Both the position numbers and the translations under genes were made by a program. Positions 26,282 through 51,940 of a stretch of 64,000 bases of DNA are shown here, in pieces (position 1 is the stretch's first letter; each line of letters opens with the position of its first letter). Origin of the DNA: Candidatus Dadabacteria bacterium (GTDB lineage Bacteria; Desulfobacterota_D; UBA1144; Nemesobacterales; Mycalebacteriaceae); contig JAPOUR010000032.1 in assembly GCA_026708565.1 (NCBI GenBank), positions 9,081 through 73,080 on the forward strand, given 5' to 3'. The notes below the pieces were generated by a model. It worked only from the letters and a program-made list of their open reading frames with translations. It was not told the origin of the DNA and did not search any database.

Positions 26282-27538
26282 ATGCCGGACGCTCCCTCAA
26301 TGAAAAACATCGCCGCCGAAGCCCGTCGGGCAACTTCGGCGCTGGCGGTTCTTGACCCGCAAACCAAAAACAAAGCGCTTGAAGCGGTCGCCTCGGCTCT
26401 GCTCGCGGGGCGCGAAAACATAATGCGCGAAAACGCCGAAGACTTGGCGCGGGCGAAAAAGAACGGCATGTCCGCCGCGATGATTGACCGCCTTGCCATT
26501 GATGACAAAAGGTTAACAGCCATGGCGCGGGGAATACGGCAAGTGGCGGCTCTGGAAGACCCTGTGGGAAAAACCGCGCCGTTTTCAACAAGGCCCAACG
26601 GTTTGCGCGTTGAGAAGATGAGAATTCCCCTCGGTGTAATCGGGATTGTCTATGAGTCAAGGCCGAACGTTACGGCGGATGCGGCGGCGTTGTGCCTCAA
26701 GTCCGGCAATGCGGTAATCCTGAGAGGCGGGTCGGAGGCGCTCCGTTCAAACATTGCAATCGGAGAGGTCATAAGAGACTGCTTAAAAGAAAACGGCGTC
26801 CCGCCCGCGGCGGTGAGTGTTGTGCCCGATGCGGACAGAAAACTGGTTCTTGACATGCTCAAACTGGACGGCTTCATAGATTTAATCATCCCGCGCGGCG
26901 GGCAGGCGCTCATAGAGTTTGTTGTGGAAAACTCCGCGATACCGGTATTGAAGCATTACAAGGGGGTGTGTCATGTTTTTGTTGACGAGTTTGCCGACAT
27001 CCCCATGGCGGTTGATATATGCGTAAATGCAAAGGTTCAGCGTCCGGGCGTCTGCAACGCGATGGAAACAATGCTTGTGGATGAAAAGATAGCGGCGGAA
27101 TTTCTTCCCGCCGTCTGGAATGAGTTAAGGGAAAAAGGCGTCTCATTAAAGGGGTGTCCGGAGACGTGTTCAATAATTCCCGATGCCGCGCCCGCAACTG
27201 ATGAGGATTGGGACACTGAATATCTTGCCCCCGTTTTGAATGCGCGGGTGGTTAAAGGCGTTGGCGGGGCAATGGAGCACATAGCCGCGCACGGTTCAAT
27301 GCACACGGACTGCATTGTTACGGAAGACGGGGGCAACGCCCGCCGGTTTCTGCGCGGTGTGGAGTCATCTGCGGTTATGCATAATGCGTCCACGCGCTTT
27401 AATGACGGCTTTGAACTCGGAATGGGGGCGGAGATAGGGATAAGCACCACAAAGATTCACGCCTTCGGCCCGATGGGGCTTGAGGAATTGACTTCGGAGA
27501 AGTTTATTGTCAGAGGGGAAGGGCAGGTTAGGGAGTAG
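26282..27538 (+). CDS. proA: Gamma-glutamyl phosphate reductase.
   Basis: 418 aa with ProA family similarity throughout. Confidence 0.85.
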   Translation: MPDAPSMKNIAAEARRATSALAVLDPQTKNKALEAVASALLAGRENIMRENAEDLARAKKNGMSAAMIDRLAIDDKRLTAMARGIRQVAALEDPVGKTAPFSTRPNGLRVEKMRIPLGVIGIVYESRPNVTADAAALCLKSGNAVILRGGSEALRSNIAIGEVIRDCLKENGVPPAAVSVVPDADRKLVLDMLKLDGFIDLIIPRGGQALIEFVVENSAIPVLKHYKGVCHVFVDEFADIPMAVDICVNAKVQRPGVCNAMETMLVDEKIAAEFLPAVWNELREKGVSLKGCPETCSIIPDAAPATDEDWDTEYLAPVLNARVVKGVGGAMEHIAAHGSMHTDCIVTEDGGNARRFLRGVESSAVMHNASTRFNDGFELGMGAEIGISTTKIHAFGPMGLEELTSEKFIVRGEGQVRE

Positions 27539-27543
27539 CCTTG

Positions 27544-28749
27544 ATGCAAAGATTGACGGACAATCAGTTGCTTAAGTTGTTGAATGACCTTGAGTCCGAC
27601 TGTGCCGAGCGCAAGGAAACATTCAAAGGAGAGGCGTCCAAAAAGGCAAGACAGGCGGTCTGTGCGTTTGCCAATGACCTACCCGGCAACAACCGGCCGG
27701 GTGTGTTGTTTATCGGCGCAAAAGACAACGGCGAACCGAGCGGATTGGATATTACAGATCAACTTCTTTTATCTTTGGCGGACATGAAAACAGACGGCAA
27801 TATCCTGCCTTTGCCCGTGTTGTCGGTGGAAAAACGCACATTGAGGGGGGCGGATATGGCTGTTGTCACAGTCCTGCCGTCCGACATGCCTCCGGTTAGG
27901 TATGCCGGGCGTATATGGACTCGCACCGGTCCGCGCCAGTCCATTGCCAACGAGCAGGAAGAGCGCATCCTTAATGAAAGGCGCAGATACAAAAACCTGC
28001 CGTTTGACCTCCGCCCCGTCCCCAGCGCGACCCTTGCGGATTTGTCAAAGACGATATTTGAGAATGAATATCTGCCCGCCGCATTCGCAAGCGATGTTTT
28101 GGAAGAAAACAACCGAAGTTATGAGGAACGTTTGGCTTCATGCAAAATGCTCTCATTGCAAGACAATGCGCCGACCGTGCTTGGGTTGATTGCAATCGGC
28201 AGAAACCCGCAGGATTTTCTGCCCGGAAATTACATACAGTTCCTGCGTATTGATGGCACTGAACTGGCCGACCCGGTTATAGACAACGCAAAAATCGTTG
28301 GTGATATAGTCAAAATGTTGCGACTGACGGAAGAAAAACTCCAAGCCCATAACCGTGAAGCGGTGGATATTACATCGGGACCAACACATAAATTAGACAG
28401 CGCCTATCCGCATGTGGCGTTGCAACAAATCCTTTACAATGCCGTTCTCCATCGCGCTTATGAAAGTAACAACGCGCCAGTTCGCGTTTACTGGTATAAC
28501 GACCGAATTGAAATCATCAATCCCGGCGGGCCTTATGGAGAGGTTACGGCGGAAAACTTTGGTCAACCGGGCATAACCGGCTACCGCAACCCGAACATAG
28601 CGGATGTGTTAAAAACCTTCGGTTTCATTCAGGCTTTCGGGCGCGGCATAGCCACCGCAAAACGGACAATGGAAGAAAACGGCAACCCGCCGCCGGAGTT
28701 TGAAGTCAACCAGAGTTTTGTAAAATGTATTTTGCGGGGCAAGGTGTGA
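27544..28749 (+). CDS. ATP-binding protein with an AlbA_2 (Schlafen-like, divergent AAA) N-domain and an HATPase_c_4 C-domain. Proteins of this architecture are often annotated as RecG-like regulators.
   Basis: Domain architecture recognised from sequence. GC is about 50%, against about 60% in neighbouring genes. It starts 5 bp after the proA stop. Confidence 0.6.
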   Translation: MQRLTDNQLLKLLNDLESDCAERKETFKGEASKKARQAVCAFANDLPGNNRPGVLFIGAKDNGEPSGLDITDQLLLSLADMKTDGNILPLPVLSVEKRTLRGADMAVVTVLPSDMPPVRYAGRIWTRTGPRQSIANEQEERILNERRRYKNLPFDLRPVPSATLADLSKTIFENEYLPAAFASDVLEENNRSYEERLASCKMLSLQDNAPTVLGLIAIGRNPQDFLPGNYIQFLRIDGTELADPVIDNAKIVGDIVKMLRLTEEKLQAHNREAVDITSGPTHKLDSAYPHVALQQILYNAVLHRAYESNNAPVRVYWYNDRIEIINPGGPYGEVTAENFGQPGITGYRNPNIADVLKTFGFIQAFGRGIATAKRTMEENGNPPPEFEVNQSFVKCILRGKV

Positions 28750-28759
28750 ACGCCGATTC

Positions 28760-30160
28760 TTGTTAACAATGGCAAAGCGAAACTTTGAAAACCGGACACT
28801 GTATCACGGAGACAACCTCAAGTTCTTGATGGAAATGAACTCTGGAACCATTGACTTGGTAGCAACCGACCCGCCGTTCAACAAGAGTAAGGATTTCCAT
28901 GCCACACCAGACAGTTTGGCCAAGGGTGCTAAATTTCAAGACCGATGGTCGTGGAAAAAAGATGTGCAACAGGAATGGGTTGACCAGATAACTGATGACC
29001 ATCCTGCACTCAAGGAATCTATTGAGGCAGCTAGAGCAGCGCACTCCGATGGTATGGGAGCATTTTGTTGCTTCTTAGCGGTGAGGCTTTTGGAAATGAA
29101 GCGCATCCTTAAACAGACTGGCTCCATATACATTCACTGCGACCCTACAGCAAGCCATTACATAAAGACCATTATGGACGCAATTTTCGGCAGGAAAAAT
29201 TTCATCAACGAAATAGTTTGGAACTATGAGAAGTGGACTAATGCGGGGAATATTTTCCAACGAAACCATGATCTAATCTTGTTTTACGGAATGCCAGAGT
29301 ACAAATTCAACAAGCAGTACGGAGAACGCACACAGAGGCAGAAATCACTTATGAAGGCCGGGTACAATTTGGGTTCCAGTAACGGGGTTCGGCTGGTCAG
29401 GATATACGACAAAAATAACCCGAATGTTGTGAAAAAACTCTCGGAATGGAAAGCGGAGGGGCGGGCAGTCTACTATGTGGATGAACCGGAAGGCAAGGCA
29501 CTATCAGATGTTTGGGACATTCCATCCCTGAATGGGCAGGCAAAGGAGCGATACGGCTACCCGACTCAAAAGCCTCTCGCCTTATACGAAAGAATAATAG
29601 AGACATCCAGTGACGAGGGAGATGTCGTTCTTGACCCATTCTGCGGTTGTGCTACGACATTGGTTGCCGCAGAAAGGCTGAAAAGAAAGTGGGTCGGCAT
29701 GGACATATGGGATGAAGCGAAAGATGCTGTCATCAAAAGGTTGTCTAAGGAAGGGAAACTCAATTCTGATCAACTGAGCAGTCCAGAAACTCTCTTCTAC
29801 TGGGATAAGATTATATATGAAACTACGCCGCCAGAACGTGCGGATAATGACATCAAGGAAGACCGTCCCGTATATCAGGTGCCAGAAAGATTTCAAGAGC
29901 CGGGGCAGAAAATGGGGCGACAGGAAATGGTAGAATACCTGCTGAAACACAACGGCCCCGTATGCCAAGGATGCGACAGAGAATTCAGTGATCCTCGCTA
30001 CTTGGAACTAGACCACAATACACCTCGTTCAGATGGGGGGCTCAACCACATAACCAACAGGGTATTACTGTGCGGTCCTTGTAACAGACTGAAAAGCAAT
30101 AGGTTCACCCTGAGTGGATTGCGTAGAGAGAACAAGAAACTCGGTTACATGGCTGATTAA
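28760..30160 (+). CDS. Beta-class DNA N6-adenine/N4-cytosine methyltransferase fused to a C-terminal HNH endonuclease domain.
   Basis: Motif IV LVATDPPF (aa ~35-42) precedes motif I VVLDPFCGCATT (aa ~290). The HNH domain is CQGCDREF...LELDHNTPRSDGG...NRVLLCGPCNRLKSN (aa ~400-450). Confidence 0.75.
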   Translation: MLTMAKRNFENRTLYHGDNLKFLMEMNSGTIDLVATDPPFNKSKDFHATPDSLAKGAKFQDRWSWKKDVQQEWVDQITDDHPALKESIEAARAAHSDGMGAFCCFLAVRLLEMKRILKQTGSIYIHCDPTASHYIKTIMDAIFGRKNFINEIVWNYEKWTNAGNIFQRNHDLILFYGMPEYKFNKQYGERTQRQKSLMKAGYNLGSSNGVRLVRIYDKNNPNVVKKLSEWKAEGRAVYYVDEPEGKALSDVWDIPSLNGQAKERYGYPTQKPLALYERIIETSSDEGDVVLDPFCGCATTLVAAERLKRKWVGMDIWDEAKDAVIKRLSKEGKLNSDQLSSPETLFYWDKIIYETTPPERADNDIKEDRPVYQVPERFQEPGQKMGRQEMVEYLLKHNGPVCQGCDREFSDPRYLELDHNTPRSDGGLNHITNRVLLCGPCNRLKSNRFTLSGLRRENKKLGYMAD

Positions 30161-30184
30161 TAAGCAAATTGGATATGTATTGAC

Positions 30185-31021
30185 TCACTTAGTAGGTAAA
30201 TCTTTATTTGGCGAAAAAAGTTCATGCTCAAAGAAGAAATCCTCTGGCAATTGTATGTTGCATTTAATCCCCATTTTTTCATCGAACAAAACAAATGTCA
30301 TTGTCATATACTTTGATGATAAGCGCATGTAATCGGCCTCCATGAAAGGATTATACCTCACTATTGGCACTAAATGCCCCTTGTGTAAAGGATTGGTGCA
30401 CGGTCTAACATTATGCATTCCAACATGTTGCCACATATTATGTACCGCTCCACTAAGTGGAACATAGGCATATTTATAGGTAGACTCTCTACCTATTTCT
30501 TTTGCCATTTCTCTTGCTGACATACCCGACCATGACCCTACATTAACTTCTGTAGCCCATTCAGCCAACTGACTATTTAACCAAGACTTCTTTCCTTGTA
30601 TCGTTCTTTCTAGCATATCTAAGTCGGAAGGGTCGGTGCATTTACTGATGGATTCTTCCAAGAACTCTATGTATAATTTTTCTTGACCTATACCATACTC
30701 CACATACTGCTTACTACGACTTTTTGGATCTTCCAGTATCCATGCCATAGTGATATACGCTTCTACCATGCATCGAAGAAACAACGGAGCAATGTGTGAA
30801 TTCCAAGTGGACGGAGCGAAAGCCATCTCCGTTGTCAAAATAACCTGTCTAGACAATAAAGCTCCGATACTCTCATGTATATGCTTATCATAAATCTCCG
30901 GTTTGACTTGTTGCCACCGAGCATCAAAACCATCTCTAACAATTTCTACATATACATCGATAAAATCATTCAGTAATTCGTTCTTGTCAGTCTCTACTTT
31001 ATCACTCATTTTGCTCACCAA
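30185..31021 (-). CDS. Hypothetical protein B, 278 aa, in an AT-rich region. It is convergent with the methyltransferase gene, 25 bp away.
   Basis: Long ORF in a locally low-GC segment with no recognisable catalytic motifs. It is overlapped by 20 bp by upstream gene A. Confidence 0.55.
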   Translation of the reverse strand: MVSKMSDKVETDKNELLNDFIDVYVEIVRDGFDARWQQVKPEIYDKHIHESIGALLSRQVILTTEMAFAPSTWNSHIAPLFLRCMVEAYITMAWILEDPKSRSKQYVEYGIGQEKLYIEFLEESISKCTDPSDLDMLERTIQGKKSWLNSQLAEWATEVNVGSWSGMSAREMAKEIGRESTYKYAYVPLSGAVHNMWQHVGMHNVRPCTNPLHKGHLVPIVRYNPFMEADYMRLSSKYMTMTFVLFDEKMGIKCNIQLPEDFFFEHELFSPNKDLPTK

Positions 31022-31772
31022 ACCTACATTGACTAATCTCTACACCGCAGTTCCAAAAACATCTAGCCCAAGTATTGTCGAGATTAAGCACTCCAAATTC
31101 GCCCAATCCATTTATTCGTAAGAGCCCAGCAGCATGTTCCGCTTCCTCGCTACCGGGCTTATTGATAACGGCATCGAAATCTGGCGAATCCATATCAGAT
31201 GGAAAGTGAGTGGTTCCTGTCACAAGGCGGAATAAGAGCATAGCACCGTGTAAAACAATACCGGGTGTCTCGTATTTATTAACCGTTTTTCCTACACATT
31301 CTTTGATACGAAAAACAAGTTCTTCCCTTGAAAATACATTGCTTGGTGGCCCTATGAAGATTAGCGGGCAGTCATCATAGAGTAGCACAAGTGGCGCAAT
31401 AGCATCTCGAATTACATCCAGAATTTCACTTTTCTTGAACAATTCAACTAATCTGATTTTCTGTTTCGTACTCAGGCATCTAAAACTAGATATAAGAGAA
31501 AAGTTGCTCTGCTGGTCATCTTTTTTTATTTCATTTACCGCTATGAAGATTGTTTCCAGTATGCGAGTCCCTTCAATATAGCCAACTTTCTCATTTATAA
31601 GTCCAATCCACACTAATTCTGGGAGCATATCATCTACATAACTTACAGATTTCATAGGAATCTGTTTTATTGGAGGTATAAACCGCTTCCCTATTCTCTT
31701 ATGCCCTTCAAGAACTTTTCGTCTTTGTTGCTTCCCTTTGTTCTTCTGTTCATTGTGACTTTTGACTACCAT
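31002..31772 (-). CDS. Hypothetical protein A, 256 aa, with a basic N-terminus (KNKGKQQRRK). It is the first gene of a two-gene AT-rich cassette.
   Basis: Long ORF with an AT-rich 5' intergenic region upstream (31773-31980) and a 20-bp overlap with gene B. Confidence 0.55.
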   Translation of the reverse strand: MVVKSHNEQKNKGKQQRRKVLEGHKRIGKRFIPPIKQIPMKSVSYVDDMLPELVWIGLINEKVGYIEGTRILETIFIAVNEIKKDDQQSNFSLISSFRCLSTKQKIRLVELFKKSEILDVIRDAIAPLVLLYDDCPLIFIGPPSNVFSREELVFRIKECVGKTVNKYETPGIVLHGAMLLFRLVTGTTHFPSDMDSPDFDAVINKPGSEEAEHAAGLLRINGLGEFGVLNLDNTWARCFWNCGVEISQCRFGEQNE

Positions 31773-31980
31773 CTCAGTACCTTCGCAATGTCTATAATAC
31801 TACATTTCAATACCATCTTATACCACTATCCTCAAACTCCACTTCTGACAAAAGTCTACCTATAGATATCTTGTTCACTCTGAGACGTGAAACACAAGCC
31901 ACACCATTACCACTATAGAGTTGGCTGGTGGTGAAATAGATTCCTGTGCGCGTAAACAAGCAGGTTTGTGTCAACGGCAA

Positions 31981-32178
31981 TCAAACCCGGCTCCAGTCCT
32001 CATAAATCATTTCACGAGTGTCCTCCCATGAAAGATTTTCAAACGGGTTCGGGTCGCCGGGGTTTCCCACAGTTAAATTGCGAGACATCTTGTAATGTTT
32101 TTTGGACTGTTTATCCGAAATGGTCTTGTTAATACCGTCTTCAACAACAGACCGCAAGGTACGCTCCACTTTCTTCAT
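31981..32178 (-). CDS. Small hypothetical protein of 65 aa (MKKVERTLRSVVEDGINK...), starting immediately after the pdaD stop.
   Basis: The ATG sits right after the pdaD stop codon and is preceded by GGTGGGG. Confidence 0.3.
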   Translation of the reverse strand: MKKVERTLRSVVEDGINKTISDKQSKKHYKMSRNLTVGNPGDPNPFENLSWEDTREMIYEDWSRV

Positions 32179-32180
32179 AA

Positions 32181-32741
32181 TCAATTCCCCACCGGCACAT
32201 AAGAGCAAAACACCACCGCCGCCACGACAGTCGTCCACAGCCCCTTTTTATCGCCGAAGGCGCTCTGAGTTACATTCTGCGTCTTCACATCATGCCCGCT
32301 TATCTTCCATATATCTTTCTGCTCATCGTAACTCTTTTCCATGTTGAACGGCGCTCCCAGAGTTGTGGCAAGCATATAGGCGGCAAGGTCTTCCGCATAT
32401 TCACCTGCCTGAGACCTGTTCTGCCCGAAACTGTGATGCTCCGATATGTAGCCGAACCTGCTCTTCTCATTCGGCAACGCCAAACCGGCGGACGCCGCAA
32501 CCAAGCGGTTCGGCTCATTGGTGGCGTTGTCGCTCATGACAACATGAACTATCTGCCCCGGAGAGAGCAGTCTCGCGCCCTTTGAGCGGGGCACTATCTT
32601 ACAGTAGGGGGGAAAGATACTGGACACCCTCACAAGGTTGAACTGCGCTATCTTTGCGTTCCTGAGCGCCATCTCAAAACTGGCAAGTTTTTCCTTGCTT
32701 TTTCCGACTCCCTTTGTAACAAAAGCTGTGGTTGGAATCAT
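32181..32741 (-). CDS. pdaD: Pyruvoyl-dependent arginine decarboxylase.
   Basis: MIPTTAFVTKGVGKSKEKLASFEMALRNAKIAQFNLVRVSSIFPP matches the PdaD N-terminus; 186 aa. Confidence 0.8.
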   Translation of the reverse strand: MIPTTAFVTKGVGKSKEKLASFEMALRNAKIAQFNLVRVSSIFPPYCKIVPRSKGARLLSPGQIVHVVMSDNATNEPNRLVAASAGLALPNEKSRFGYISEHHSFGQNRSQAGEYAEDLAAYMLATTLGAPFNMEKSYDEQKDIWKISGHDVKTQNVTQSAFGDKKGLWTTVVAAVVFCSYVPVGN

Positions 32742-48241: not shown

Positions 48242-49546
48242 ATGATTAAACATCTCAAGATGAGCAATGTGGGACCAGCTCCGGCTATGGAGTTGGAGTT
48301 TGGCGACAGACTGAACCTGCTCACGGGGGATAATGGATTAGGCAAGAGTTTTCTGCTGGATATAGCATGGTGGGCGATGACCCGCATATGGCCAGCGGAG
48401 TTAAACACGAATCTGACATCGGGCAGGGTGGCGTTGCCTACTGAGAAGAAACAGAAATCTGAAATCAGTTATTCCTTCTCCGCATTCTCTACGAACACAA
48501 AACCACATACCAGCACTTATGAACCGGAAATCCAAAGTTGGTCTGCTCCAAGTTGGCCTGCTCCAAAAGGGAGACCCCCAAACCCCGGATTGGTGTTTTA
48601 TGCCTTGGCCGACGGTAGTTTTGCAGTTTGGGACCCCGCCAGAAATTACTGGACAGCACAAACCGGGAACGGAGAACGTCCGGTTGCTTATGTGTTCAGC
48701 CCCAAAGAGGTATGGGATGGATTGCAACGCAAAGACGGTTCTTGGCTTTGCAACGGACTGATTCGCGATTGGGCTGGCTGGCAAAAAGAAAAAGGACAAG
48801 CTTTCCAGTCCTTAAAGGATGTGCTGGAGGTTTTGTCACCGTCCACTGAGGAAAAGATTACTCCCGGCGAGTTGACACGCATCAGTTTGGATGATGTGCG
48901 AGACATGCCGACATTGAAAATGCCTTACGGTCAGGATGTCGCCGTAGTCCATGCGTCTGCGGGAATGCGCCGGATTATTTCTCTGGCTTACTTTCTGGTC
49001 TGGTGCTGGGAAGAACATGTCAAAGCCAAGAAATTGCAGGGAGATGAAGATGAACCGGAAAAAGGTGTGGTCTTTCTGGTTGATGAAGTTGAGGCACACC
49101 TCCATCCGAAATGGCAACGCATGGTAATCCCGTCCCTTCTAAAGGTTATGGAAACTCTAACAGAATCCGTCCCTGTGCAACTGATAGTAGCAACTCATTC
49201 ACCCTTGGTTATGGCCTCGGTGGAAACGCTGTTTGACAACGAGAAGGATGCTTGGTTTGACCTTGACCTTAAAGACAATGAAGTCGTTCTAACCCCTCGG
49301 CCCTTTGTAAGGCAAGGTAATGTTGCTCATTGGCTGACAAGCGCAGCCTTTGATTTGGAGTCCGCTTACGGCTCTGATGAAATCAAAAAAGTACTGGAAG
49401 AAGCCTCCTTTGCTTTGAGCAATGAAAATTTCAGTAAAGAAGAAGCAAAAAAGTTAGATAAGCGCCTGAGAAAAGTCTTGTCAAGTACCGACCCCTTATG
49501 GGCACGGTGGCGTTTTGAGGGCGAAAAAAGAGGGTGGCTACGATGA
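48242..49546 (+). CDS. ptuA: Septu PtuA-like ABC-type ATPase of the AAA_15/AAA_21 family.
   Basis: Walker A LLTGDNGLGKSF and Walker B/H-loop VVFLVDEVEAHLHP...VATHSP, with a long insert between them. It is coupled by a 13-bp overlap to an HNH gene. GC is about 49%. Confidence 0.65.
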   Translation: MIKHLKMSNVGPAPAMELEFGDRLNLLTGDNGLGKSFLLDIAWWAMTRIWPAELNTNLTSGRVALPTEKKQKSEISYSFSAFSTNTKPHTSTYEPEIQSWSAPSWPAPKGRPPNPGLVFYALADGSFAVWDPARNYWTAQTGNGERPVAYVFSPKEVWDGLQRKDGSWLCNGLIRDWAGWQKEKGQAFQSLKDVLEVLSPSTEEKITPGELTRISLDDVRDMPTLKMPYGQDVAVVHASAGMRRIISLAYFLVWCWEEHVKAKKLQGDEDEPEKGVVFLVDEVEAHLHPKWQRMVIPSLLKVMETLTESVPVQLIVATHSPLVMASVETLFDNEKDAWFDLDLKDNEVVLTPRPFVRQGNVAHWLTSAAFDLESAYGSDEIKKVLEEASFALSNENFSKEEAKKLDKRLRKVLSSTDPLWARWRFEGEKRGWLR

Positions 49547-50148
49547 TTCATGTCAAGTTGCGACCGGAGCCTGATACATTCAATAGCAGGGTTAGGCAAA
49601 AAGGTCATGCTTGGATGAACAAACACCAGACTCTACCGCCCAGCAATAAATTCCCTCGCTACTGGAAAGATTGTCTGGATGATTTGCGTTCAAGTTATAA
49701 AGACCATTGCGCTTACCTCGCCGTACAGATTGAAGAAGTTGAAGGAGAATACCCTTCTGTGGATCACTTCTTAGCAAAATCGAGACGACCCGACCTTGCA
49801 TACGAATGGAGCAACTATCGTCTTTCATGCTCAGAAATAAATAGTCTCAAAGGCAACTCTGATGATGTATTAGACCCGTTTGAAATAAAGAACAACTGTT
49901 TTCATCTTGATCTTGAATTTTTAATCGGGCATATCTACTCCAATAAGGCACTACCGCCTGACCAAAGAGAGGGGATTCAAGCGACTATAGATAAGCTCAG
50001 ATTGAACAATGATAAATATCGGGAGATGAGGGAGCAACATTACCAAGATTGCCGTGAGGGACACTACGACAGCGATTACTTGAAACGCATATCTCCCTTT
50101 GTTTGGTCGGAGGCTAAACGGCAGGGGTTGCTGAAAGATAACGGCTAA
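49534..50148 (+). CDS. ptuB: Septu PtuB-like HNH endonuclease of the TIGR02646-like family, with a partly degenerate zinc finger.
   Basis: Sequence HCAYL...VDHFLAKSRRPDLAYEWSNYRLSCSEINSLKGN retains the HNH His/Asn residues, but the second Cys of each CxxC pair is replaced. Confidence 0.6.
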   Translation: MATMIHVKLRPEPDTFNSRVRQKGHAWMNKHQTLPPSNKFPRYWKDCLDDLRSSYKDHCAYLAVQIEEVEGEYPSVDHFLAKSRRPDLAYEWSNYRLSCSEINSLKGNSDDVLDPFEIKNNCFHLDLEFLIGHIYSNKALPPDQREGIQATIDKLRLNNDKYREMREQHYQDCREGHYDSDYLKRISPFVWSEAKRQGLLKDNG

Positions 50149-50183
50149 CCAACCACCCGTATTGGAGTTGAGAGGAAACAAAC

Positions 50184-51035
50184 ATGAAAACAGAAACCAA
50201 AGGCGGCAGGACCGCCCTGATAAGGGCTGCAAAAGAAGGCGATACCAATAAGATACGGAAATTGCTGAAAGCAGGGGCAAACATAGAAGCAAAGGATAAT
50301 GAGGGTAGGACGGCTCTTATAATCGCAACAGAATATGAGCGCTCTCAAGCAATGGGGTTACTGTTGAAAGCAGGAGCGGATACAGAGGCAAGAGCAAAGA
50401 AGCGCAGACGGACATCTCTGATGATTGCGGCGGCAAGAAGCGGAACAGGTAGGGTGGCTGAACTACTGAAAGCAGGGGCAAACACAGAAGCAAAAGATAA
50501 TGAGGGCAGGACGGCTCTTATAATCGCAACAGAATATGAGCGCTCTCAAGCAATGGGGTTACTGTTGAAAGCAGGAGCGGATACAGAGGCAAGAGCAAAG
50601 AAGCGCAGACGGACATCTCTGATGATTGCGGCGGCAAGAAGCGGAACAGGTAGGGTGGCTGAACTACTGAAAGCAGGGGCAAATACAGAAGCAAAGGATA
50701 ATGAGGGTAAGACGGCTCTTATAATCGCAGCAGAAAACGGGCACTCTCAAACAACGGCGGAGCTACTGGAAGCGGGAGCAGACATAGAAGCAAAAGATAA
50801 ATATGGCGGAACAGCCCTTATAGTAGCAGTAGGAAACGAACATCATAAAGTAACGGCGGAACTACTGAAAGCAGGAGCGGCAAAAGGTGAAAATGGCAGA
50901 AAACTTCACAAAGCAACAGCCCTTCGGGAAGCAAGAGACCTCTGGGAGAAAACAAGAAAAACCAATATAAGTAGCAAGACCACCCTAATAAAGGCTACCA
51001 AAAAGGCGATACCAACAAGATACGAGAATTGCTGA
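50184..51035 (+). CDS. Ankyrin-repeat protein, N-terminal part of a probably frameshifted gene.
   Basis: About 8 ANK repeats (GRTALIIA...LLKAGA). The reading frame continues in the +2 frame after an A5GG tract at 51000-51006. Confidence 0.6.
   Translation: MKTETKGGRTALIRAAKEGDTNKIRKLLKAGANIEAKDNEGRTALIIATEYERSQAMGLLLKAGADTEARAKKRRRTSLMIAAARSGTGRVAELLKAGANTEAKDNEGRTALIIATEYERSQAMGLLLKAGADTEARAKKRRRTSLMIAAARSGTGRVAELLKAGANTEAKDNEGKTALIIAAENGHSQTTAELLEAGADIEAKDKYGGTALIVAVGNEHHKVTAELLKAGAAKGENGRKLHKATALREARDLWEKTRKTNISSKTTLIKATKKAIPTRYENC
50271..50740. repeat. Near-perfect 201-bp tandem repeat, about 2.3 copies, encoding 67-aa double-ANK units.
   Basis: Units start at 50271, 50472 and 50673. 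Copies 1 and 2 differ at only a few positions. Confidence 0.9.
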
Positions 51036-51940
51036 AAACAGGGGCAAACATAGAAGCAAAAGATAACCGAGGCAGGACGGCTCTTATAATCGCAACAGAA
51101 TACGAGCACTCTCAAGCAATGGGGTTACTGTTGAAAGCGGGAGCAGATACAGAAGCAAGGAGAGAGATGCGTAGGTGGACACCTCTGATGATTGCGGCAA
51201 GATTTGAAACAAGTAATCTGGCGGAACTGCTGAAAGCAGGGGCAGACACAGAAGCAAAGGATAATGAGGGCAAGACAGCCCTTATAATCGCAGCAGAATA
51301 CGGGTGCTCTCAAGCAACGGCGGAGTTACTGAAAGCGAAGGCAGACATAGAAGCAAAGGATACATATGGCAGAACAGCCCTTAGAGTAGCAACAGGAAAA
51401 AGACGCCATAAAGTAACGGCGCAACTGCTGAAGGCAGGGGCGAGAGTAGAGGAAGCGAAGGCAGGGGCAAAAGTAGGGGAAGCAAGAGAAACCAATATAA
51501 AAGTTCAGAGCCCGGATGCCCATAAAGTTTCTTTCTCCACAGAAGCGGAGTTAGAAAACTTTATTTGTTCGCATTGGTACCACACTATCTTTGGCAATGC
51601 TTTTGACATTTACAAAGACACGGAAGGGCGAAGCGGCAAGCAATACCCCACGGACCTGAGAGAGCGGATTGATATTCTTGCCATAAGCAATGACAAGGAA
51701 ACTTTTCTTGTCATTGAACTGAAAGTGGGCAAAGCCCCCGATACCGTTGTCGCACAATGCCAGCGTTACATGGGCTTTGTCAAAGACAAAGTGGCAAAGA
51801 ACGGCCAGAAAGTGCGGGGAGCCATAGTAGCCACAGAAAAAGACAAGAAGATGGAACGGGCTTTGTCAGAAGCATCTAATGTTGACTTCTACACCTACAA
51901 GGTTGACTATAAGGCCGTTCAAATGAGCAGAGTTGAGTGA
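51029..51940 (+). CDS. Ankyrin repeats followed by a C-terminal PD-(D/E)xK nuclease-like domain (NucS/DUF91-like or Shedu-like). This is probably the 3' part of the same gene as 50184..51035.
   Basis: ANK repeats, then RIDILAISNDKETFLVIELKVGKAPDTVVAQCQRYMGFV, which carries the D...E-x-K core and the QxxRYMG motif. Confidence 0.55.
   Translation: MLKTGANIEAKDNRGRTALIIATEYEHSQAMGLLLKAGADTEARREMRRWTPLMIAARFETSNLAELLKAGADTEAKDNEGKTALIIAAEYGCSQATAELLKAKADIEAKDTYGRTALRVATGKRRHKVTAQLLKAGARVEEAKAGAKVGEARETNIKVQSPDAHKVSFSTEAELENFICSHWYHTIFGNAFDIYKDTEGRSGKQYPTDLRERIDILAISNDKETFLVIELKVGKAPDTVVAQCQRYMGFVKDKVAKNGQKVRGAIVATEKDKKMERALSEASNVDFYTYKVDYKAVQMSRVE

Follow-up and report, generated by a model that had tools for sequence, protein, structure and literature searches.

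Why do two core genes of a Candidatus Dadabacteria chromosome, proA and pdaD, enclose a cluster of genes with low guanine-plus-cytosine (GC) content, and where do these genes come from? We addressed this question in a 64,000-nucleotide (nt) stretch of contig JAPOUR010000032.1 (assembly GCA_026708565.1), referred to below as the window. A preliminary description, made from the letters alone, had taken the genes between proA and pdaD for a horizontally acquired defence island, and this reading held up: at flanks that are about 98.5% identical, the interval carries three different contents, with defence-type genes among them. The proA-pdaD interval is a polymorphic slot for defence-type genes, not a conserved core arrangement. 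Its layout in the window is as follows.

26282..27538, plus strand: proA (glutamate-5-semialdehyde dehydrogenase; NCBIfam PRK00197, 8e-182), the left core flank, about 98.5% conserved in all three alleles
27539..32180, no strand: the whole variable interval (the island), 4642 bp bounded by the stop codons of proA and pdaD, which are convergent core genes
28759..31943, no strand: the inner cassette, in whose place allele C has McrB, McrC and most of vapC
31944..32176, no strand: a segment common to the McrBC allele (233 bp, 95% identity), comprising the 3' two-thirds of vapB and the first 40 nt of vapC
32181..32741, minus strand: pdaD (pyruvoyl-dependent arginine decarboxylase; Pfam PF01862, 2.1e-58), the right core flank, with an identical protein in all alleles

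Three alleles occupy the proA-pdaD interval

Close relatives were collected by an exact-sequence look-up of the window's PdaD, which returned 13 contigs from several metagenomes and one NCBI metagenome-assembled genome (MAG); the same look-up with the window's ProA gave no match. NCBI names the source of the deposited homologues Candidatus Dadabacteria, and labels of the form L0xx denote the comparison contigs. Blastn revealed three states of the interval among contigs with identical PdaD, with flanks 98.3-98.5% identical to the window in the other two alleles and 99.9% identical in contigs sharing the window's allele.

Allele A, L081 (a 1.2-Mb contig): 663 bp replacing the 4.6 kb, with a single open reading frame (ORF) of 206 amino acids (aa)
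Allele B, the window's own: L082, L084 and L090
Allele C, L083 and L085: the same first island gene, followed by genes for McrB, McrC, a PIN-domain VapC and a VapB-like antitoxin

Homology to allele A stops at position 27536, within the proA stop codon (TAG versus TGA), and resumes at 32181, the last base of the pdaD stop codon. The boundaries drawn beforehand are thus almost base-exact, including the close left junction: the proA stop codon ends at 27538 and the first island gene begins 5 nt past it. Allele C differs from the window in a nested manner, its content taking the place of positions 28759-31943, with homology to L083 extending to 28758 and resuming at 31944. The homologous arms around this differing inner cassette are the first island gene, which encodes a Schlafen-like protein, and the 233-bp segment. 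The Schlafen-like protein is identical to its L083 (allele C) copy at 396/401 residues, which indicates that its gene travels independently of the inner cassette. At the other boundary, four contigs (L086, L087, L088 and L089) end 0-141 bp beyond the pdaD stop codon, as assemblers will yield where haplotypes diverge, and this pattern suggests that several alleles coexist within single samples.

The single ORF of allele A (L081:10606-11226, minus strand) starts in overlap with the proA stop codon and had no match in Pfam, PADLOC, PHROGs or PDB sequences; a PD-(D/E)xK-like motif in it is a by-eye impression only. Elsewhere in the same contig (L081:1224-3372), the NAD-dependent DNA ligase was called as two pieces of 493 aa and 52 aa, compared to about 684 aa in other contigs, a split call that reflects a frameshift or an assembly error.

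More distant genomes hold other genes at this position. The GTDB species representatives contain no ProA more than about 60% identical to that of the window, and hence no close sequenced relative. Four distant genomes were syntenic (L005, L008, L010 and L049), none of which carries any island gene, and in three of these four pdaD lies near proA, with the following genes in between.

L005:11268-14885, L010:11259-15620 and L049:11372-13033, the proA-pdaD interval in distant relatives: recN, alone or accompanied by a sigma-70-like factor, rfbC or rmuC

The 64-kb window contains neither recN nor that sigma-70-like factor; in the lineage of the window, recN has therefore left this position, by relocation or loss. 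We also looked for an arrangement in which proA directly adjoins pdaD, a check that the preliminary description had suggested for close relatives, and saw it in no genome. A recurrence of the same gene order and composition across relatives, which the preliminary description had named as the sign of a core region, was checked as well; instead, there are three alleles in close relatives and recN and other genes in distant ones.

The island is compositionally layered

GC content of positions 27539-32180 is 44.8%, compared to 55.4% for the remaining window. Judged against 501 windows of 4.6 kb outside the island (mean 55.3%, standard deviation 2.1%, minimum 48.2%), the island lies about five standard deviations under the mean and is the lowest stretch of that size in the window. 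All six of the lowest-GC 1-kb windows of the 64 kb fall within it, and the sliding-window trough starts just past proA and stops at pdaD. A drop from about 60% to about 45-50% had been reported before; the drop itself is real (48.6% for 27544-30160), but the level it starts from is lower, with 55.9% and 55.7% in the flanks immediately beside the island. Likewise, the value of about 35% given for 30160-32000 corresponds to the 400-bp minimum (35.5% at 31400-31799), the average of that region being higher, at 39.6%.

GC content at third codon positions (GC3) declines stepwise, from 0.62-0.66 in host genes to 0.57 in the Schlafen-like gene, 0.52 in a gene for a methyltransferase (MTase)-HNH fusion and 0.35-0.37 in two minus-strand genes, dividing the island into three compositional strata. 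As GC3 drops in steps, several acquisitions rather than one are indicated, and the data point to a mosaic of independently acquired modules. The earlier picture of one island thus stands as far as acquisition is concerned, but not as a single event. An Rfam scan of the island gave no family at threshold, and a promoter and terminator scan of it was uninformative. As for gene content, the ORF map and Pfam reproduced the complete earlier list: an AlbA_2/HATPase_c_4 protein, an MTase-HNH fusion, two overlapping minus-strand genes and a small ORF.

The minus-strand genes resemble a split DitA

The two minus-strand genes, previously listed as overlapping genes with no identity, do overlap, and both can now be matched to a split homologue of a single defence protein, DitA.

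31002..31772, minus strand: first operon gene, a 256-aa protein with no Pfam family, matching DitA model positions 5-235 (N-terminal half)
30185..31009, minus strand: second operon gene, a 274-aa DUF5677 protein (Pfam PF18928, 1.5e-20), matching DitA model positions 307-449 (C-terminal half)

The ATG of the downstream gene overlaps the stop codon of the upstream gene by 8 nt (ATGAGTGA). In PADLOC, both proteins matched only DitA (PDLC03826, 486 positions), collinearly and with E-values of 7e-9 and 5e-12; these modest values suggest a distant branch of DitA. DitA itself is one of the two genes of the anti-phage system Aditi (DitA and DitB; Millman et al. 2022). The literature presents Aditi without an assigned domain family or known mechanism, and searches for DitA, DitB and Aditi gave list-type mentions only.

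A DitA gene broken by a frameshift was considered and ruled out by three findings: 80 homologues of the 256-aa protein, about 246 aa long and from several phyla, stand alone; the DUF5677 homologues are separate genes encoding 262-283 aa and covering 91-99% of the long ORF; and the two genes are adjacent, overlapping or abutting in seven out of seven contexts. The 256-aa protein has also been deposited from an NCBI Dadabacteria MAG. An exhaustive profile search with the N-terminal domain yielded 1192 cluster representatives, most of them of split length. Fused forms accounted for 9 of the best 150; they span 514-583 aa, have DUF5677 as part of the C-terminal half and align with the DitA model over its whole length, with E-values down to 9e-36. 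One fused form stands alone between ispG and an aldo-keto reductase gene. The possibility that the two halves are paralogues was rejected as well (hhalign probability 0.1%). AlphaFold2 (AF2) models of both proteins are confident and all-alpha, with predicted local distance difference test (pLDDT) scores of 87 for the 256-aa protein and 93 for the DUF5677 protein.

The neighbours of the pair are defence, toxin-antitoxin or mobile genes in four out of seven contexts (the window counted). In L091 (4893-8558), the pair lies directly downstream of Prok-E2_E and ThiF genes, with a WYL gene also nearby; in L102 (5946-9389), it directly follows a gene for a 646-aa SIR2_2 protein and is itself followed by a transposase gene; and in L103 (7525-9878), it sits between HicA/HicB-like genes, with DUF4365 and IS91 also among its neighbours. 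These neighbours could be functional partners or could merely share a defence island with the pair. At L097:3-566 (plus strand), a partial gene precedes a fused 540-aa DitA-like gene, overlapping it by 8 nt, and shows weak PADLOC matches to DolB (Dodola, 1.7e-6) and PDC-M37B.

Compared to Aditi, the likeness lies in a DitA homologue whose two parts are collinear with DitA and whose fused relatives match it from end to end. The pair differs in that DitA is split into two translationally coupled genes and in that it comes without DitB. We found no DitB homologue in the window or beside the relatives examined, nor any conserved third gene beside these relatives, and, owing to the missing DitB homologue, PADLOC rules would not call an Aditi system. 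Judged by homology and gene order, the pair is an autonomous, mobile, DitA-related two-gene module from which one defining feature of Aditi, DitB, is absent.

The first island gene encodes a Schlafen-like protein

27544..28749, plus strand: prokaryotic Schlafen-like protein, 401 aa, with N-terminal SLFN_AlbA_2 and C-terminal HATPase_c_4, common to the window allele and the McrBC allele

Pfam assigned both domains to this protein (PF04326, 1.1e-10; PF13749, 3.9e-19), the former spanning residues 18-134 with 42.5 bits against a cut-off of 25.3. The Ex4ExK motif is intact (ESDCAERK, residues 17-24, with E17, E22 and K24) and identical in the L083 copy. The protein also matches the phage protein family phrog_12156 (6.6e-34). 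According to Taboada et al. (bioRxiv 10.1101/2025.07.24.666596), Ex4(E/D)xK is the catalytic motif conserved in 5,930 prokaryotic Schlafens (pSlfn). Their survey ranks HisKinase-clan fusions first among pSlfn architectures (34%) and places 69.6% of pSlfn genes no more than 10 kb from a defence gene, which leaves 30.4% farther away. The same study showed tRNA cleavage and abortive infection for RorSlfn5, which carries a different sensor domain, and in a second preprint a Schlafen protein from an enterococcus is reported to protect strongly.

The window protein shares with the pSlfn nucleases a PF04326 domain with Ex4ExK at the expected place, a HisKinase-clan fusion (the 'pSlfn-HisKinase' class) and a defence-island setting. 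In contrast, the validated members are DUF262-Slfn and Ig-like-Slfn fusions, whereas the window protein is a HATPase_c_4 fusion. On these features, we assign the 401-aa protein to the pSlfn family, with nuclease activity and a defence role predicted for the HATPase_c_4 architecture.

The second gene fuses a methyltransferase to an HNH nuclease

28769..30160, plus strand: single-chain DNA methyltransferase-HNH fusion, 463 aa (N6_N4_Mtase PF01555, 1.2e-46; HNH PF01844, 3.3e-9)
29963..30103, plus strand: HNH nuclease domain of the fusion (Pfam HNH, residues 402-448 of the 466-aa ORF)

PADLOC matched this protein to MTase_II, a Type II methyltransferase (3e-67). The order of the MTase motifs, with DPPF (motif IV) at 34, PTQKP at 265 and DPFCG (motif I) at 289, identifies a beta-class enzyme, as motif IV precedes motif I. 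The DPPF motif suggests that the methylation target is N6-adenine; McrBC, the system encoded in allele C, is not known to target N6-adenine methylation, and an attack of McrBC on the methylated genome is therefore an unlikely reason for the two systems to exclude each other. The C-terminal domain contains CQGC at 399, DH at 415, NH at 426 and CGPC at 435, that is, the CxxC...DH...NH...CxxC series of a zinc-ribbon HNH nuclease. Among NCBIfam models, it comes closest to the HNH domains of IscB (1.1e-9) and Cas9d, both of them RNA-guided nucleases, and this suggests that the HNH lineages of the MTase-HNH protein, IscB and Cas9d are closely related.

A homologue search reached saturation, with 7,999 of 8,000 candidates scored, the best 120 of which were analysed. 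All 120 contain both domains (53-60% identity, 409-514 aa), and in the alignment of these fused homologues conservation of the catalytic motifs, in the MTase and the HNH domain alike, is 95% or higher. The gene occurs alone among housekeeping and metabolic genes in L095 and within a defence island, near a transposase gene, in L096; the protein has also been deposited from an NCBI Dadabacteria MAG. Phage and plasmid collections contained relatives of the MTase part only, except for a single plasmid record whose match takes in 80% of the protein or more. On this sequence evidence, the MTase-HNH protein is one of a large family that also occurs stand-alone in other genomes.

A literature search found no paper on a beta-class MTase-HNH fusion. 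The nearest known design is that of the Type IIC enzymes (MmeI, Eco57I, BtgZI), which likewise combine MTase and nuclease domains in one polypeptide and whose gene can likewise stand alone without a separate methyltransferase. Characterised Type IIC enzymes, however, join an N-terminal PD-(D/E)XK nuclease to a gamma-class MTase, or, in BtgZI, an alpha-class MTase to a C-terminal PD-(D/E)XK variant, whereas the window protein joins a beta-class MTase to a C-terminal HNH domain and so lacks the canonical Type IIC architecture. If it restricts DNA, the MTase-HNH protein would be a different architecture of the combined Type IIC idea.

The small ORF is a vapB relic

31981..32178, minus strand: truncated vapB-like antitoxin remnant, 65 aa from an internal ATG, within an ORF that reaches 32238 and overlaps pdaD

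The small ORF noted at the right end of the island is present, and comparison with allele C gives it an identity. Its C-terminal residues (about 60) match an 83-aa VapB-like protein that is intact in L083, where a 143-aa PIN protein (VapC) comes next. In the window, the remnant has lost the N-terminus and about 100 bp upstream, and only 40 nt of vapC are kept. Unlike an intact VapBC pair, the window thus has a truncated antitoxin and no toxin, and the small ORF is, by this alignment, a decayed vapB left from a vapBC pair, a relic and not a system.

A second low-GC patch in the window

Outside the island, four co-directional plus-strand genes at window positions 48242-51940 coincide with a second low-GC patch, with 1-kb windows of 45-48% GC. 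They encode an AAA_21/AAA_15 ATPase (434 aa), a 204-aa ORF without Pfam match and two ankyrin-repeat proteins, the second of which has a C-terminal PD-(D/E)XK nuclease domain. This patch may be another acquired or defence locus. Its ankyrin repeats fit a sponge-symbiont origin, and sample labels together with the ankyrin genes suggest that the host is a sponge symbiont.

Weighing alternative explanations

An ancient, vertically inherited core region with odd composition would fit the packing of the first island gene 5 nt past proA, the near-host GC content (53%) of the 5' third of this Schlafen-like gene and the fact that proA and pdaD are also neighbours, with genes between them, in distant relatives. 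Those genes, however, are unrelated core genes (recN, a sigma factor, rfbC or rmuC), the close relatives show three contents despite identical PdaD, flanks of about 98.5% identity and breakpoints at stop codons, and each module is found in unrelated phyla and unrelated contexts; inheritance as a core region is therefore extremely improbable. That metagenome assembly or binning joined foreign DNA to a Dadabacteria contig has in its favour that the source is a MAG, that composition changes sharply and that several contigs break here. Yet at least three contigs of separate sample and source (L082, L084 and L090) show these junctions too, at 99.9% identity, long contigs (57.7 and 71.6 kb) run across both of them, and an NCBI Dadabacteria MAG also contains the 256-aa and MTase-HNH proteins. 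As the alternative alleles moreover share the Schlafen gene and the vapB segment, which is not expected of a random chimera, we consider such an artefact very improbable. The remnant of an integrated mobile element, be it a prophage, an integrative element or a transposon, would account for the foreign composition, for a vapB relic of the kind often carried on mobile elements, for the transposases beside homologous modules elsewhere (L096, L102 and L103) and for the phrog_12156 match of the Schlafen-like protein. It is nevertheless quite unlikely, as the island lacks the features by which integrative elements are recognised, namely a recombinase, att sites or terminal repeats and a tRNA site: no island gene encodes an integrase or transposase domain, there is no tRNA beside the island (the nearest are 21.9 and 45.2 kb away), and its boundaries show only short, chance-level direct or inverted repeats. 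Furthermore, no phage structural or replication genes are present in the island, the other island proteins match generic methyltransferase or HNH families in PHROGs or nothing at all, and the breakpoints fall at core-gene stop codons in all three alleles, with a nested swap via internal homologous segments.

A further possibility is that the genes were acquired horizontally but are not primarily defensive. The MTase-HNH protein would then act epigenetically or selfishly (as an addiction or homing-like element), the Schlafen/HATPase_c_4 protein would bind DNA as a regulator, and the DUF5677 pair would serve in housekeeping or under stress. COG2865-type proteins are often annotated as regulators or as RecG-like, 30.4% of pSlfn genes have no defence gene nearby, housekeeping genes often surround the split pair and the MTase-HNH gene, and for the pair one test of DUF5677 alone showed no protection and fold searches were uninformative. 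We nonetheless judge a non-defensive role unlikely: defence-type genes sit together in a polymorphic slot whose alternative allele holds a classical restriction system, McrBC; the nuclease motifs are intact and strongly conserved; and the only PADLOC family matched by the pair is a validated defence protein.

Several observations weigh against reading the island as an exchangeable defence slot with active modules. The only pointers to exchange by recombination are the lack of mobility genes and the sharp breakpoints. For the pair, the AF2 models gave no informative fold match among solved structures and Foldseek found nothing among viral models; DitB gave no match to the two DitA-like proteins (E-values up to 10) or to the other three island ORFs (E-values up to 0.01); the split pair lies among housekeeping genes in three out of seven contexts; and a DUF5677 ORF did not protect Enterococcus faecalis when tested by itself (enterococcal preprint). 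The Schlafen-HATPase_c_4 architecture is not among the two found protective by Taboada et al. No characterised Type IIC enzyme has a beta-class MTase and an HNH domain, for which reason the MTase-HNH protein could also be a methyltransferase with a nuclease for non-restriction use. On the other side, the island has what is expected of a defence hotspot, that is, variable content between core genes, deviant composition and defence-type cargo, the latter comprising the MTase_II and DitA matches in PADLOC, the Schlafen domain and, in allele C, McrBC and vapBC. Taken together, we find it very likely that defence genes are exchanged by recombination in the slot where the 3' ends of proA and pdaD face each other, with cargo differing among strains.

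Proposed mode of action and significance

In this exchangeable slot, DNA taken up from related strains would most likely be swapped in by homologous recombination, via the flanking core genes or via the inner shared arms, that is, the Schlafen gene and the vapB remnant, so that the population would hold varied defences at one address, with each module acting independently. The Schlafen nuclease with its GHKL-like HATPase_c_4 domain may be a latent RNase, probably a tRNase by analogy with the tested bacterial Schlafens, whose C-terminal domain would sense infection and switch on growth arrest. The MTase-HNH protein may act as a one-chain restriction-modification enzyme that methylates the host site and nicks or cuts unmethylated incoming DNA, and the pair of all-alpha proteins may form a two-subunit Aditi-like module working without DitB. 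For all modules, biochemical activities and an anti-phage role are predicted.

The slot is a base-resolved natural example of cassette exchange at a defence site in an uncultivated lineage without genetics, and it highlights three families abundant in metagenomes: Schlafen-HATPase_c_4 proteins, beta-class MTase-HNH fusions and the split DitA-like pair. We put forward, tentatively and with some doubt, that the pair of an approximately 250-aa protein and a DUF5677 protein, together with its fused form, constitutes an autonomous, widespread, DitB-independent anti-phage system and, separately, that the beta-class MTase-HNH proteins constitute a large uncharacterised class of single-chain restriction-modification enzymes. 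Either, if true, would be a new entry in the catalogue of defence systems. The natural split and fused DitA-like forms and their DitB independence offer constructs for working out Aditi-type action, and the MTase-HNH family could supply new single-chain restriction-modification enzymes.

Comparison with known defence slots

The closest known counterpart is the immigration control region of E. coli (hsd-mcrBC-mrr), which carries alternative restriction and defence cassettes, including replacement of McrBC (PMC12707154); PMC10121019 deals with the defence-island repertoire of E. coli. Both the immigration control region and the proA-pdaD interval are fixed chromosomal slots with conserved flanks and strain-alternative cassettes. 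The Dadabacteria slot differs in belonging to an uncultivated member of another phylum, in its convergent proA and pdaD flanks, in its size of only 0.7-5.7 kb, in breakpoints that lie at the two stop codons and in a cargo drawn largely from uncharacterised families. Here, three cargoes alternate: McrBC with vapBC, the MTase-HNH fusion with the split DitA-like pair, and the single gene of the short allele. The island is thus an ordinary kind of feature that changes no established view and is comparable with the E. coli immigration control region.

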